Shown here piece after piece: positions 8,025 to 51,241 of a stretch of DNA of 64,000 bases. Position 1 is the stretch's first letter; every line of letters starts with the position of its first letter. The translations under genes were made by a program, and so were the position numbers. This DNA is from Vulcanimicrobiota bacterium. Lineage in GTDB: Bacteria > Vulcanimicrobiota > Vulcanimicrobiia > Vulcanimicrobiales > Vulcanimicrobiaceae. The DNA is taken from positions 275,094 to 339,093 of the forward strand of contig CAWHWQ010000002.1 of NCBI GenBank assembly GCA_963833095.1, in the 5' to 3' direction. Under the pieces are notes generated by a model. The model did not search any database and was not told the origin of the DNA. It saw nothing but the letters and a program-made list of their open reading frames with translations.

Positions 8025-8225
8025 TTGTCATCCCGAGCGTAGTGATCCTGAGCGAGCGAAGCGAGTCGAAGGGGAACGTAGTCGAGGGACACACGCGACC
8101 CCCCAGCTCCAAGCATGAACAGCATACAAACGTCCTATCGCGTGCGTGCCCAAGAAGTTTCTCGTCGGTCCCTCGACTTCGCGGCTGAACGCAGAGCGTT
8201 CACCCCGCTACGCTCGGGATGACAA
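8025..8225. repeat. Inverted pair of REP-like palindromic repeats between convergent genes
   Basis: 8025-8089 reads TTGTCATCCCGAGCGTA...GTAGTCGAGGGA; 8169-8225 is a reverse-complement copy with a different internal hairpin. Confidence 0.9.
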
Positions 8226-17000: not shown

Positions 17001-17051
17001 GAACTTGTCATCCCGAGCGTAGCGAAGCGTAGTCGAGCGAGGCGCAACTAA

Positions 17052-17084
17052 AGAAGAGCCCGGCAAAAACCGCCGGGCTCTTCT
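17052..17084. terminator. Intrinsic terminator-like hairpin (possibly bidirectional)
   Basis: AGAAGAGCCCGGC-AAAAACC-GCCGGGCTCTTCT, a 13-bp perfect stem. Confidence 0.7.
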
Positions 17085-17085
17085 G

Positions 17086-17238
17086 TCATCCATTATCGAT
17101 GTTTTTGGAAAAGTACTCGCGTAGCGCATCAGCGTTCTCACCGAGCGCCCGCTTCGGGAAGATAAACATCCCCACGCCCTGCGAGTGCGCCACGGTACAT
17201 CCTTGGCGGTACTCAACGCGGGTAAGTGTATCGATTCG
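17086..17238 (-). pseudogene. Gene remnant resembling the C-terminus of a YcxB-like protein
   Basis: Frame between two stops reads RIDTLTRVEYRQGCTVAHSQGVGMFIFPKRALGENADALREYFSKNIDNG*. FIFPKRAL resembles the YcxB motif. Confidence 0.35.
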
Positions 17239-17387
17239 TCAGGGTGAGCGAAGCCATCGTGTCCATGGTTAAGGCATGATCCGACTGTCCCCTCAGACCT
17301 TCGCGCATAGTCCAAAGGAACGAGCCCGGTGTTTCCGCCGAGCTCGTTGTTTGCGCTTCCCTCGACTACGCTCGGGATGACAAGTTA

Positions 17388-23742: not shown

Positions 23743-24093
23743 TCAGTGCGCGGTCGCGGGACTTTGCGACGGCGGCTTCTTTCGCCGGCGACGCCGTGGC
23801 GGCGGCCCGGACTGCGCCGGTGGCTGCGGCGGCGGACTGGGCCGATTGACCGAAACGATCGGAATATTCGCAAGCATCGCAAGCGCCCGGTCCTCACGTT
23901 CGAAGTTCACTTCGACTTTGTCGCGATCGACTTCGACGTAGCGGGAGATCACGTCGACGAGATCGCGCTTCATGTTCTCGATGATATCGGGCGCGAGCGC
24001 AAGGTGATCGGTCATCAGCACGAGGCGCAGCCGCTCTTTTGCAGTCGAGCTCGACGTCGGACCGCCGAACATCTTTTTGACCCAGTCGATCAT
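23743..24093 (-). CDS. minE: Cell division topological specificity factor MinE
   Basis: SSTAKERLRLVLMTD...DLVDVISRYV...LANIPI; Pro/Arg-rich tail. Confidence 0.93.
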   Translation of the reverse strand: MIDWVKKMFGGPTSSSTAKERLRLVLMTDHLALAPDIIENMKRDLVDVISRYVEVDRDKVEVNFEREDRALAMLANIPIVSVNRPSPPPQPPAQSGPPPRRRRRKKPPSQSPATAH

Positions 24094-24929
24094 GCGCGCT
24101 TCCCTCCGAAGATCGAGCCGAGCTTGTCCATGAACGACTCTTTGAGTTCGGGGGACGGCGCGGGCACGTCTTCGCCCGCGACACGCGCGGCAATCGCGTG
24201 GTACGCGCTCGCGGTCTCGCCCTCGTGGCGCAGTGCAAGCGGTTCGCCTCGGTTGGTGGTAATGATAATCTCCGGTTCGTCGGCAATGACGCCTAGCAGC
24301 GGCAGGCGCAGGATTGCGTTGACATCTTCGACCGAGAGCATCTTGCCCTTCTTTACCAACTGCGGGCGCAGACGATTGATGATCAACTGCGGCTTGAAGC
24401 GGTTGCCGAGCAAGCCAACCACGCGGTCAACGTCGCGGACCGCCGAAACCTCGGGCGTGCAGACAACGATTGCTTCGTCAGCACCGACGATGGCGTTCTT
24501 GAAGCCCTGCTCGATGCCGGCCGGACAGTCGATCAACACGTAGTCGAAACGTTCGCGAAGCCCCTGAACGAGCGCGCGCATCTTCTCGGTGTCAACTTCG
24601 TCTTTCTCGCGCGACTGCGCAGCAGCAAGAAGCACCAAGGTCTCGCTGTGCTTGTCGGGCACGAGCGCCTCGTCGAGCGAGACCTTGTCCTCGAGCACGT
24701 CGAGCAAATGGTATTTCACGCGACTCTCGAGTCCGAGCACGATGTCGAGATTGCGCAGCCCGACGTCGGCATCGATCAAGGCGACGCGCGCCCCCCGCTG
24801 CGCAAGCGCGGTGCCCAAATTGGCAGTAGTCGTCGTTTTGCCGACGCCGCCCTTGCCCGAGGTCACGACGATCGCCCGCCCGAGCTTCGCTGCGGGAGTT
24901 GCGACTTCATGAGGAACTGGTTGGTGCAT
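24090..24929 (-). CDS. minD: Septum site-determining ATPase MinD (copy 2)
   Basis: TSGKGGVGKTT, DADVGLRNLD, DCPAGIE, TPEVSAVRD and a C-terminal amphipathic helix; start placed at 24929. Confidence 0.93.
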   Translation of the reverse strand: MHQPVPHEVATPAAKLGRAIVVTSGKGGVGKTTTTANLGTALAQRGARVALIDADVGLRNLDIVLGLESRVKYHLLDVLEDKVSLDEALVPDKHSETLVLLAAAQSREKDEVDTEKMRALVQGLRERFDYVLIDCPAGIEQGFKNAIVGADEAIVVCTPEVSAVRDVDRVVGLLGNRFKPQLIINRLRPQLVKKGKMLSVEDVNAILRLPLLGVIADEPEIIITTNRGEPLALRHEGETASAYHAIAARVAGEDVPAPSPELKESFMDKLGSIFGGKRA

Positions 24930-24936
24930 CGAATGA

Positions 24937-25728
24937 TTACCCCGCCTTGAGAGCGCCGAAGAGTTTGCCGAAGAAGCCTTGCGCGTCGAAGGTCGTGAAC
25001 GGCACCATCTCGCCTTCGAGACGCCGCGCGATCTTCTCGTAAATGCCGCCCAGCCGCGCGGCCGGATCGAGCACAATCGGCTCGCCGCGGTTCGTGGTGT
25101 CGATAACCTCGGGATCTTCGGGGATCACCCCGACGAGCTCGACGGCGAGAATCTCGCAGACGTCTTCGACCGAAAGCATGTCGCCGGTACGCACCATCTC
25201 AGGGCGCAGGCGATTGAGAATCAATCGGATCGGCAGCCCGCGGTCGTTGAGTTTGCCCACCACGCGATCGGCATCGCGAATCGCGCTGACTTCCGGCGTC
25301 GTGACGACGATTGCTTCCTTAGCGCCGGCGACCGCATTACGGAAACCGCCTTCGATGCCGGCCGGGCAATCGATCAGAACGTAGTCGGCATTTTGCGCGA
25401 TCTCTGCTACCACCGCCTCGAATTGCGACTCGGTGATCGCGTCTTTGTCGCGGGTTTGCGCGGCCGGAAGAATCGAGAGCGATTCGAAGCGCTTATCCTT
25501 GATGAGCGCCTGGCGCAGTTGGCAGCGTCCCTCCACGACTTCGACCAAATCGAACACGATTCGCTTCTCAAGACCCAGCACGAGATCGAGATTGCGCAGT
25601 CCGATGTCGGCATCGACCAACACCACACGCAATCCGCGTTTCGCGAGCGCGGCGCCAAGATTTGCCGTGGTCGTGGTCTTACCCACGCCACCCTTGCCCG
25701 ACGTGATGACGATGCGACGTCCTGACAT
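24937..25728 (-). CDS. minD: Septum site-determining ATPase MinD (copy 1)
   Basis: TSGKGGVGKTT, DADIGLRNLDLVLGLE.RIV, DCPAGIE and C-terminal FFGKLF. Confidence 0.95.
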   Translation of the reverse strand: MSGRRIVITSGKGGVGKTTTTANLGAALAKRGLRVVLVDADIGLRNLDLVLGLEKRIVFDLVEVVEGRCQLRQALIKDKRFESLSILPAAQTRDKDAITESQFEAVVAEIAQNADYVLIDCPAGIEGGFRNAVAGAKEAIVVTTPEVSAIRDADRVVGKLNDRGLPIRLILNRLRPEMVRTGDMLSVEDVCEILAVELVGVIPEDPEVIDTTNRGEPIVLDPAARLGGIYEKIARRLEGEMVPFTTFDAQGFFGKLFGALKAG

Positions 25729-28727: not shown

Positions 28728-29720
28728 ATGGCATCGGCACTAGGCGCACGCGATCTCTTCCGGCTCGTACGTAACGGCATCGACGTCAACAGCGTCCACG
28801 TGCGCATCCGCAAGCCGTTCCGTTTCCTATTGTGCGGAGATCATGCGCTCATTGGGCAGATGCGCGCCATGCTGCTTTCCGGTCATGCGGATGACTCAGT
28901 GCCCGATGATGCCGCGGCCTGTATCGAAACGATCTCGCCCAGCGCGCCGCTCATCACCGAGCCGAGCGAAGTGCGGGTGGTCATTTTCCTCGGCTATCCG
29001 GGCGATCGCGAGGGCGCGAACCTCGAACCGCTCAAGGTTCTGCGCGTGCCGATCCTTGCGCTGACGATCGATCCGCTCGAAACGCCGGCCGGACCTGCCG
29101 CCGTTCCCGCGCCGTCAACGGTCGGCGACTACGTCGTCAACGCGATCACCAAAGATGCGCTCAAGGGCCGCGTTTTCACGCACATCGTCGAGGCTTCGAA
29201 GGGCGTTGAGATCGCCGTAGGCCGTCGCCTTCCGCCGCTGCGCGAAACGGTCGCGGCCAAGCTGACGCGCGATGCTGCAAATAATTCGCTCAAAGTCGCA
29301 CTGGCAAGCGCCCTAGTCGATCACATTCCGGTCGTCGGCGTCGTGCTCGGCGCCTTTGCATCGGCCGGCGACATGGTGGCGATCACCGGATTTCAGATGA
29401 TGCTGCTGCTGCACATCGAGGCGACCTACGGCAAGGACCCCGACGTACAGCGCATGTGGAAACTGCTGCCGGTTATCGGCGGCGGCTTCGGCTGGCGCAC
29501 GCTCGCGCGTGAACTCGCCGGCTTCGTTCCGGTGGCGGGCGTCGCGATCAAGGGCGCCATCGCCTACGCCGGTACGATCGTCGTCGGCGAAAGCGTCACG
29601 TTCTTTTTAGAGCACGGCTCGCACATGAGTAAGGCGCAGGCCTCGCAGCTCTACGACCGCACCAAAGCCGACGCGCTACGCTTCGCCCGCGACCTCATCC
29701 TCCGCATCAAAAAGAAGTAA
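28728..29720 (+). CDS. DUF697/YcjF-like hypothetical membrane-associated protein
   Basis: C-terminal IPVVG...DMVAITGFQMMLLLHIEATYG...FVPVAGVAIKGAIAYAGT pattern. Confidence 0.6.
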   Translation: MASALGARDLFRLVRNGIDVNSVHVRIRKPFRFLLCGDHALIGQMRAMLLSGHADDSVPDDAAACIETISPSAPLITEPSEVRVVIFLGYPGDREGANLEPLKVLRVPILALTIDPLETPAGPAAVPAPSTVGDYVVNAITKDALKGRVFTHIVEASKGVEIAVGRRLPPLRETVAAKLTRDAANNSLKVALASALVDHIPVVGVVLGAFASAGDMVAITGFQMMLLLHIEATYGKDPDVQRMWKLLPVIGGGFGWRTLARELAGFVPVAGVAIKGAIAYAGTIVVGESVTFFLEHGSHMSKAQASQLYDRTKADALRFARDLILRIKKK

Positions 29721-29855
29721 CGCTCCTGTCATCCCGAGCGTAGCTGCGTAGCAGCGAAGTCGAGGGACCGGTGCAATCCCTTGTCATCATGAGCGTAGCC
29801 TCCCAATTGTCATCCCGAGCGTAGCTGCGTAGCAGCGAAGTCGAGGGACTGGCAA
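29717..29855 (+). repeat. Left REP array (two full copies and one partial) flanking the GIY-YIG gene
   Basis: TGTCATCCCGAGCGTAGCTGCGTAGCAGCGAAGTCGAGGGA at 29727 and 29808; partial copy at 29782. Confidence 0.93.
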
Positions 29856-30152
29856 CTACGTCGTGCGGTTGCGACCGCGGCTGTAACGTTTTATGGCTTT
29901 CCAATCTCCGTCGACGAACGCGCGTTTCTTGCGGTGCGACCACGCTTTGAGCTTCTTCTCGAAGGCGATTGCCTCTCCGACCCAGGTAAACTCCGAAACG
30001 TGCACGAGGATAAGCGGTCGACGATCAAAAGTGTAGCACTCGGGATCGATGCCGAAGGAATGTTCGCTCAGACGCCGCTCGATGTCATTTGTAACCCCGA
30101 CGTAGAATGTCCCATCAAAGCATCGCAAGACGTAGACGTAATAACTTTTCAC
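29856..30152 (-). CDS. Small stand-alone GIY-YIG endonuclease (YhbQ/UPF0213-like)
   Basis: YYVYVLRCFDGTFYVGVTNDIERRLSEH...YT..RRP...EAIAFEKKLKAWSHRKK; start placed at GTG 30152. Confidence 0.92.
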   Translation of the reverse strand: MKSYYVYVLRCFDGTFYVGVTNDIERRLSEHSFGIDPECYTFDRRPLILVHVSEFTWVGEAIAFEKKLKAWSHRKKRAFVDGDWKAIKRYSRGRNRTT

Positions 30153-30187
30153 GCCTGAGCATCTGCTTCGTCGCAGCGCATTGGCTA

Positions 30188-30413
30188 GCATCGGTCCCTC
30201 GACTTTGCTGCTAGGCAGCTACGCTCGGGATGACAAGGGATTGCATCGGTCCCTCGACTTCGCTGCTACGCAGCTACGCTCGGGATGACAAGGGATTGCA
30301 TCGGTCCCTCGACTTCGCTGCTACGCAGCTACGCTCGGGATGACAAGGGATTGCATCGGTCCCTCGACTTTGCTGCTACCCAGCTACGCTCGGGATGACA
30401 ATTGGAGCGTTAC
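30188..30413 (-). repeat. Right REP array: four tandem 55-bp units, inverted relative to the left array
   Basis: TCCCTCGACTT(C/T)GCTGCTA(C/G)(G/C)CAGCTACGCTCGGGATGACAA starting at 30195, 30250, 30305 and 30360 (period 55). Confidence 0.95.
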
Positions 30414-31150
30414 AGACGCTCGAGTAAGTCTTCGTCTTCAAGGCGTTGCAAGTCCGCCGGAAGACGCGGACGGACGCGCTGCGCAAGTTGCGATGCGAGG
30501 GCGGCGCGGCGTTGCGGCACAAGATCGGTGCGCCGCTCGAGGAAGCGCCGGATGATCGACCGTTCCTCACCGCTCACATACGCGGTCGCTGCGTACACGG
30601 GTTCCGCCACTTCGCGTAGCATCTTTTCGGGCGATTCCATCCGGGATTCGCGAATCACGATCGTTCCGGCCGCAAGATCGCCGATGCGTTTATTCTGTGG
30701 CGAAAAGACCGCGACCACGGCCGAGAGGGCATAGAATCCGAGCGCCATCTCACCTACGCGAATCAAGTTGCGAATGACCGACGCCATGAAATCGATCGGA
30801 TAGCCGCCGTCGCGGACCACGCGAATGCCCAACATCCGTTTTCCCGGCGTTTGCCCGTTCCACAGGGCTTCGAAAAGAATGAAGTAGCCAAAGAAGATCA
30901 AGAACAGCACGACAATGACCATCGCAATGGCGATACTCTCCACGAGGTGATCGCGGCTGCCCAGACGCATCGTCGCATACGTACCATGCGACGTTGCGGC
31001 GATCGCGGTCAAGCCCCAGACCAGCAGCAAAAGGAACGCGATTTGAATCGCGAGGTCAACGGCGAGCGCAAGAAACCGGCTACCGACGCCGGCGAGCTCG
31101 TAGGAGAAGGCGATCGATTCCGGCGTGCGGACCTCTAGGGTTCGATCCAT
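30410..31150 (-). CDS. RDD-family membrane protein
   Basis: TPESIAFSYELAGVGSRFLALAVD, GQTPGKRMLGIRVV, IRNLIR and KRIGDLAAGT motifs. Confidence 0.92.
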   Translation of the reverse strand: MDRTLEVRTPESIAFSYELAGVGSRFLALAVDLAIQIAFLLLLVWGLTAIAATSHGTYATMRLGSRDHLVESIAIAMVIVVLFLIFFGYFILFEALWNGQTPGKRMLGIRVVRDGGYPIDFMASVIRNLIRVGEMALGFYALSAVVAVFSPQNKRIGDLAAGTIVIRESRMESPEKMLREVAEPVYAATAYVSGEERSIIRRFLERRTDLVPQRRAALASQLAQRVRPRLPADLQRLEDEDLLERL

Positions 31151-51223: not shown

Positions 51224-51241
51224 TTGTCATCCCGAGCGTAG
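51224..51241 (+). repeat. Truncated REP copy
   Basis: TTGTCATCCCGAGCGTAG (left arm only). Confidence 0.75.

Follow-up and report, generated by a model that had tools for sequence, protein, structure and literature searches.

A gene for a small, stand-alone GIY-YIG nuclease lies between two arrays of hairpin repeats that are inverted relative to each other, and the question raised by this locus is whether the enzyme acts on the repeats that enclose it and also spreads them. The locus belongs to a Vulcanimicrobiota genome and is described here within the window, that is, the whole stretch of 64,000 nucleotides that was analysed. The favoured reading, to which a probability of about 0.6 is given, is that of a gene-plus-repeat cassette that works like the Ssn/NTS pairs and comes from a neighbouring nuclease clade with a repeat of its own. 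The concept of a tiny GIY-YIG nuclease associated with a tagged hairpin is known; the clade and the build of the repeat are what differ here. The initial annotation knew of no established mechanism for such a system. That statement is not supported, as strand-specific cleavage of single-stranded DNA (ssDNA) beside tagged hairpins has been published for four Ssn enzymes (PMC11893778).

The cassette and its repeat

The features of the element and of its two host neighbours, followed by the other copies of the repeat found in the window, are listed below.

28731..29720, plus strand: left host gene, no family match; site marker outside the element
29717..29726, plus strand: left arm of the outer 10-bp inverted repeat, containing the TAA stop of the left host gene; local feature
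29727..29781, plus strand: left repeat unit 1, with a 45-nt core (29727-29771) followed by the spacer shared with the right array
29782..29799, plus strand: partial repeat, 5' half alone with an altered stem; tag at 29782
29808..29852, plus strand: left repeat unit 2, the second full unit; tag at 29808, end 3 nt from the nuclease stop
29856..30152, minus strand: single-domain GIY-YIG nuclease gene, 98 aa, GTG start; Pfam GIY-YIG (PF01541), E=3e-15
30181..30400, minus strand: right array, made up of four units of 55 bp that read towards the nuclease start; tags at 30400, 30345, 30290 and 30235
30404..30413, minus strand: right arm of the outer 10-bp inverted repeat, containing the TAA stop of the RDD gene; local feature
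30410..31150, minus strand: right host gene, RDD family (Pfam); site marker outside the element
8026..8224, no strand assigned: nuclease-free inverted repeat pair between convergent stops, missing from the same site in G150 and G223
17006..17382, no strand assigned: nuclease-free inverted repeat pair enclosing ~340 bp; in G150 and G223 both stops abut directly
21760, 51225 (partial) and 52558: single repeats
from 54987: further array

All tags of the two arrays face outward and adjoin the stops of the two convergent host genes, the tag of left unit 1 lying 6 nt past the left host stop. The arms are 91-100% complementary, the left and right arrays use a common spacer, and half units and a mirrored flank occur at the same locus. 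The tag positions agree with the composition first proposed, namely two full units and a partial one on the left and four inverted 55-bp units on the right. The nuclease gene is indeed the sole content between the arrays, in that it is the only ORF with a family match between the host stops; a 74-aa ORF on the opposite strand has no match in Pfam. The dispersal of the same repeat in nuclease-free pairs is likewise seen at 8026-8224 and 17006-17382. As for the host genes, the RDD label stands, whereas the label "DUF697-like" of the initial annotation finds no match in Pfam or NCBIfam. The outer 10-bp inverted repeat is perfect, with 3 extra bases separating its right arm from the tag. The symmetry, which includes both TAA stops, is real at this locus, but the ends of other repeat pairs do not share it. 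For 16 inverted pairs, the outer flanks score 3.44 as compared to 3.37 for random ones, and the reading of the symmetry as a homing signature or terminal inverted repeat was rejected. At the same site, G223 exhibits a different and imperfect outer symmetry.

A promoter scan found no site for the nuclease gene. To note, no Shine-Dalgarno-like run precedes its GTG start (window 30152-30190) or the starts at homologous loci, and in several loci the last repeat is followed by a TAGCCA/TTGCCA-like hexamer that may be a weak leaderless promoter. In four of the six sequencing runs listed, the contigs end at the arrays and none of them spans the cassette with a new joint. Elsewhere in the window, the partial repeat at 51225 faces ~840 bp of extra DNA in G150 and G223, apparently with two small genes in it, and the minCDE region (23743-25728) apparently contains, as judged from motifs, two tandem minD-like genes before a minE-like one.

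Across phyla, the repeat starts with TGTCA, which is followed by four stem bases and GAG; after a top that varies come TCGA and the complement of the four stem bases. It is thus built of a tag, a 4-bp stem, a GA step facing another GA step, a G-C pair, a bulged T, one further pair and a top, for which an added hairpin or one of CTTG, CCTG, C-GNA-G and TTTA is found. The GA steps that face each other would form tandem sheared pairs, and the CTTG and TTTA loops are DNA-type motifs. Among 168 distinct short copies, in which pairing was not demanded, the four stem positions are paired in 138, 153, 151 and 154 and the closing pair is formed in 156. Each of these counts exceeds the maximum of 1000 shuffles, and the stems covary. 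Related copies are not independent of each other, and p-values in this analysis are overstated for the same reason, as kin are not independent. The outermost A displays no pairing excess (79 vs 81). The motif GCGNAGC is found on the tagged strand of 64 of 87 complete repeats and on the complement of 1 of 87; published work describes this sequence as a DNA mini-hairpin of very high stability that contains a sheared G.A pair (PMC13037366). Nearest-neighbour DNA folding gave neither significant stability nor a strand difference (z from -0.7 to -1.3). Immediately before the tag, T occupies position -1 in 69 of 76 cases and a pyrimidine positions -2 and -3 in 66 and 57, with little bias beyond. Inverted doublets are tag-outward in 16 of 17 instances, and their inner arms go on pairing (p=2e-6). 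By local GC skew, no bias of the repeat towards one replication strand was seen (45 vs 55).

The source genome (2.8 Mb) harbors 135 tag matches as compared to 3-10 in three Markov simulations, and 95 matches to the full repeat pattern against 0 for the reversed pattern. The SRM pattern of the Ssn system, HGTCWYN(0-2)YYVSBRHN(0-5)WNVSBRGN(0-2)RNCYNB, has no match in the element, and its 16 matches in the source genome fall within the 15-24 obtained by chance. Long tandem arrays of half repeats, with 24-mer and 30-mer units and a full unit at the end, were observed in the same genome at G000:C1:575957-576213 and C4:196703-197100. Repeat counts are strongly strand-imbalanced in some near-complete genomes (G102 16/147, G023 53/177, G205 9/87, G097 28/98, G041 180/63), which long tandem arrays or a replication bias could explain.

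The nuclease among GIY-YIG families and known repeat systems

The nuclease is formed by one PF01541 domain, for which a confident model was obtained. Residues Y7, Y17, R27 and E65 are invariant across 59 clade sequences, and the catalytic Tyr/Tyr/Glu of SsnA (Y6, Y17, E64) are all matched. The gene is under purifying selection, with dN ~0.12 and dS ~1.8 against the G223 orthologue. The closest solved structures are those of the UPF0213 proteins 1ywl and 1zg2, with Slx1 after them; the protein resembles UPF0213/YazA/YhbQ and Slx1-like proteins in its fold and N-terminal motif. It differs from UPF0213/YazA in its genomic setting, as the sampled members of that group have no flanking repeats and YazA is part of an operon with trmNF and rsmI.

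The Ssn enzymes are also single-domain GIY-YIG proteins, whose genes are flanked by CGTCA-tagged hairpins and which lower transformation in Neisseria (PMC11893778). They cut nothing but the tagged single strand, on the 5' side of the hairpin and a few bases away from it (Chenal et al. 2025, PMC11893778); from the oligonucleotide lengths given there, we derive a cut 3 nt before the repeat for SsnA, which leaves RNA uncut (PMC11893778). The present protein shares with SsnA of Neisseria meningitidis (cd10448) the size of ~95 amino acids, the single domain and the catalytic residues. Unlike Ssn, its 98 residues include a UPF0213-like C.D..Y.G start and an RRP motif, and the NP.W.DL tail is missing. 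The setting is shared too: the gene lies between oriented hairpins with a CGTCA or TGTCA tag, further copies of which are scattered through the genome, and nuclease and repeat form lineage-specific pairs. Whereas NTS/SRM hairpins have a perfect stem of 8-9 bp, the repeat described here has the internal GA/GA step, the T bulge and a variable top.

Ssn was represented by the Azospirillum lipoferum 4B gene, which is flanked by four NTS-like repeats, and by its relatives, SsnA itself lying outside this reference set; the species belongs to the defining set of the Ssn paper (PMC11893778). The nuclease scores 143 bits on the profile of its own clade and 50 bits on that of these Ssn proxies, which themselves score 82-170, and in BLASTP the nuclease scores an equal 50.1 bits with one Ssn protein and with YazA. 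In a tree of 45 proteins, picked from 110 rows after dropping long branches, the Ssn proxies group together at 100/100 on a long stem, to the exclusion of the query, which is instead placed in a separate group with 95/84 support. The query clade and Ssn join at 97/95, separate from the UPF0213-like proteins. The AU test rejects nesting of the query among NTS-type Ssn (p=4.4e-5). Monophyly of the query clade without Ssn (p=0.32) and a position of Ssn outside the query clade plus UPF0213, which amounts to rooting on the Ssn stem (p=0.40), are not rejected. As judged from sequence, the nuclease belongs to a clade neighbouring core Ssn and not to core Ssn.

The Ssn paper applied cut-offs of E<1e-10 to SsnA and of a cd10448 profile match with a CDD score >100 (PMC11893778). 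With an Ssn proxy in place of SsnA as query, the search gives E=3.1e-10 in the source genome, and the values of clade members range from 1e-15 to 1e-8. Algoriphagus yeomjeoni is scored YES for a cd10448 homolog in Supplementary Data 4 of that paper (PMC11893778), and the sole match to the Ssn query in its genome, taken from a different assembly than the paper's, is a member of the query clade. On these grounds, the loose criteria of the Ssn paper may already count the query clade, without its repeat. At G330:C1:1284348-1285359, three near-identical small GIY-YIG genes of another type (L211, L216, L219) stand in tandem, 398 bp apart, with neither repeat.

Resemblances extend to two further systems. 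The CGTC superfamily of REPs comprises CGTC/TGTC repeats for which no transposase gene is linked (Di Nocera et al. 2013, PMC3733652). The present repeat likewise has an unpaired CGTC/TGTC tag and intergenic dimers and no linked transposase gene; it departs from families 1-4, with their stems of 8-9 bp and loops of 4-5 nt, by its 4-bp stem, GA/GA step, bulge and variable loop (PMC3733652). No bulged family and no GIY-YIG partner was found in the available text of that paper, whose authors state that bulged repeats may have been missed (PMC3733652). With RAYT/TnpAREP REPtrons and REPINs the cassette shares the single gene between inverted arrays, the imperfect tagged hairpins and the tag-outward doublets. 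The enzyme is unlike RAYT in being a GIY-YIG hydrolase rather than an HUH/Y1 protein, and the tag is TGTCA, not GTAG. RAYT/TnpAREP forms a 5'-phosphotyrosine and can transfer strands (PMC3479197). The REPtron geometry noted by the initial annotation is thus present as regards the gene between inverted arrays, but the analogy is not new: NTS-ssnA-NTS was already likened to an insertion sequence and to RAYT/REP, its spread being left as a hypothesis (PMC11893778). That the system is not of RAYT type is upheld. PF01797 (Y1/RAYT) was not found in the source genome and gave one weak match among the 18 genomes of the genus; RAYT was accordingly set aside as the mobiliser of these repeats.

No description of this repeat or clade was found in a literature search whose scope stopped short of Fig. 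5a of Chenal et al., Fig. 2 of Di Nocera et al. and most subscription papers, any of which may already present the one or the other. The Chenal paper was the only one found on SsnA since 2023, and among the matches listed (20 of 52) none links GIY-YIG with REPIN/RAYT. The supplementary text of Chenal et al. does not contain the terms cd10456, UPF0213, YhbQ, RAYT or REP.

Gene-repeat pairing and turnover at intergenic sites

The clade was sampled as 123 distinct proteins with their DNA, made up of the best matches in the host class, 80 named loci and two plasmids; the named loci come from Bacteroidota, Nitrospirota, Nitrospinota, Ignavibacteria and candidate phyla. A repeat lies within 400 bp of the gene in 118 of the 123 loci, and on both sides in 88. 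Of the five loci without it, one lies on a short contig, two hold degenerate copies, and the remaining two, from Alphaproteobacteria, have tags that deviate from the pattern. SRM is present at a single clade locus (1/123), and shuffled flanks contain the repeat in 4 of 1230 cases. Among other small GIY-YIG genes, mostly UPF0213-like, the repeat is beside 1 of 38, a count reached from 3/41 after setting aside L040, L106 and L205 as truncated clade members. At 20 Ssn-type loci, SRM was found at 5 and the GA-type repeat at 4, and the GA-type repeat therefore crosses into Ssn. The proteins of L043 (Planktothrix plasmid), L173, L174 and L175 are Ssn-type and accompanied by the GA-type repeat, not SRM, and possibly represent a bridge between the two systems.

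In the host family, gene presence was defined as a match at E<=1e-20, and 7 genomes with weak matches were omitted; the unpublished genomes G191, G193 and G208 enter the tallies as single rows. The median number of pattern matches is 84.5 in the 108 genomes with the gene and 6.5 in the 100 without. At least five repeats occur in 105 of the former and in 52 of the 100 genomes in which the gene was not detected, 20 of which carry at least 50; repeat persistence thus does not need the gene. Three gene-bearing genomes with a zero count possess a compensated T-A variant beside their own nuclease subclade.

The flanking repeats co-vary with the nuclease phylogeny, as the initial annotation had suggested might be found. 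On a tree of 64 proteins, the stem subtype changes 4 times as compared to 15.9 when shuffled, and the closing pair 3 times as compared to 6.9; host genus is likewise clustered on this tree. Two nucleases coexist in genome G121, each beside its own repeat subtype, one with a C-G and the other with a G-C closing pair. In the source genome, a second clade nuclease, truncated to its C-terminal half, is found at C5:230509-230658 and is flanked by the second subtype (G000:C5:230430-230740). This subtype, with a G-C closing pair, is present there in 12 copies vs 110 of the first.

The left host gene is present in 16 of the 18 genomes of the genus and adjoins the RDD gene in 14; of the other two, one has a different neighbour and one ends at a contig edge. 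These 14 comparable sites comprise 2 full cassettes, 7 decayed ones, 1 occupied by other DNA and 4 empty ones, so that the empty sites sought between the host genes do exist among relatives. The site of G255 was assigned by eye. Decay has left the repeats and the first ~21 nuclease codons at one site and repeat remnants at six, while the empty sites measure 2-13 bp and contain no repeat. Between the same host stops, G148 (L052) has two inverted repeats around ~380 bp of unrelated DNA in the nuclease's place, with four ORFs, none of which matches Pfam. The doublets at window positions 8026 and 17006 are likewise present in some genomes of the genus and absent from others, and their spacers and neighbours vary.

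On a larger scale, 30 site groups were distinguished among the 35 loci that have long flanks; the clade gene is not syntenic and, together with the 118 repeat-flanked loci, this speaks against a fixed housekeeping gene, the outcome that the initial annotation had named as fatal to its proposal. The gene is found in 108 of 215 genomes of the host family, in up to three copies, some truncated. First-in-array tags lie within 15 nt past a same-strand stop in 41 of 100 cases as compared to 44 of 1672 other TGTCA sites. There is no fixed insertion register and no target duplication: the tag starts 2-15 nt after the stops and the junctions differ. These comparisons show that both the cassette and repeat copies without the nuclease come and go between genes, immediately past stop codons; at single sites gain and loss are not polarised, the host tree being weak at depth.

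Proposed mechanism, alternatives and significance

Within the favoured reading, the 98-residue protein is probably a repeat-specific ssDNA nuclease, and it is slightly more likely than not that it also drives the spread of the repeat. The repeat would fold on the tagged strand only, when the DNA is single-stranded, by means of sheared G.A pairs and GNA loops. By analogy with SsnA, the nuclease would bind this folded strand and cut ~3 nt 5' of TGTCA, a position suggested both by the base bias, which stops at -3, and by the SsnA precedent. GIY-YIG enzymes are hydrolases that leave free ends after the cut, with no covalent protein-DNA intermediate, and any spread would therefore need host enzymes for synthesis and template switching. 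The enzyme would be a trigger, not a transposase. More speculatively, the cut ends might be repaired by host polymerase and recombined with template switching between arms, and so duplicate the repeat; duplicated repeats might then build arrays, and the gene or other DNA between two arms would sometimes be moved. The shared spacer, half units and mirrored flank of this locus fit copying between arms.

The main competitor, which we consider rather unlikely, is a repeat-specific nuclease that serves the host alone: it would trim incoming ssDNA in transformation as SsnA does, while the repeats would be spread by slippage, recombination or another enzyme, with the gene as cargo. Trimming of transforming DNA is the sole role demonstrated in vivo for the Ssn family (PMC11893778). 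ComEC occurs in 16 of the 18 genomes of the genus and DprA in the source genome, the gene is under purifying selection, the arms enclose unrelated DNA at the G148 site and at window 17006, and repeats persist in genomes without the gene. However, ComEC was not found in the source genome (81% complete), no other candidate mobiliser was found, and the repeat load is higher where the gene is present. The patchy presence, the occurrence of up to three copies, the truncations and the many site groups also fit a mobile gene better than one that is kept.

It is still less probable that the repeats are mainly RNA hairpins behind stop codons, acting in mRNA stability or translation control and regulating the flanked nuclease gene, with DNA recognition being secondary. 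The clustering of first-in-array tags just past same-strand stops is what such a role would predict, and a similar position effect is reportedly seen for E. coli REPs. Against this, GCGNAGC and the loops CTTG and TTTA, which are non-canonical and conserved, are motifs of DNA type, the repeat has no match in Rfam, SsnA ignores RNA, and the pairing of subtype with nuclease would be left unexplained. Very improbable is an ordinary branched-DNA repair nuclease of the UPF0213/YazA/Slx1 type with repeats adjacent by chance: the ranking of solved structures points that way, but the difference between the clade loci (118/123) and other small GIY-YIG genes (1/38) largely refutes chance adjacency, and the clade is neither syntenic nor joined to the UPF0213-like proteins, from which it is split at 97/95.

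A wider version of the cassette reading can be put forward tentatively. The clade might be a transposase-free counterpart of RAYT, a hydrolytic enzyme that reads a non-Watson-Crick DNA fold (tandem sheared G.A plus a GNA mini-hairpin) and cuts next to it. Priming and repair by the host would then copy the repeat to other sites and mobilise any DNA enclosed by two arms. Such a clade would constitute both the older stock from which Ssn/NTS arose and the missing mobiliser. The older-stock part draws on the early-branching or unresolved Ssn rows that carry the GA-type repeat (4/20 loci).

With the cassette reading, the Ssn family gains a second large clade, whose target is of another build. It also supplies cognate repeats for genomes that are listed with an Ssn homolog and without SRM enrichment. 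In A. yeomjeoni, for instance, 7 SRM were counted where 10.9 were expected (PMC11893778), and the cognate repeat is found at 26 places in its genome. Pairs in which the repeat subtype matches the nuclease, including two that coexist in a single genome, offer a ready-made test of specificity and more candidate ssDNA cutters. As one genus contains sites that are full, decayed, occupied by other DNA or empty, nuclease-driven repeat spread is directly testable. If the clade were truly a transposase-free counterpart of RAYT, a mobiliser would be named for repeats of Bacteroidota, Nitrospirota, Nitrospinota, candidate phyla and Vulcanimicrobiota.
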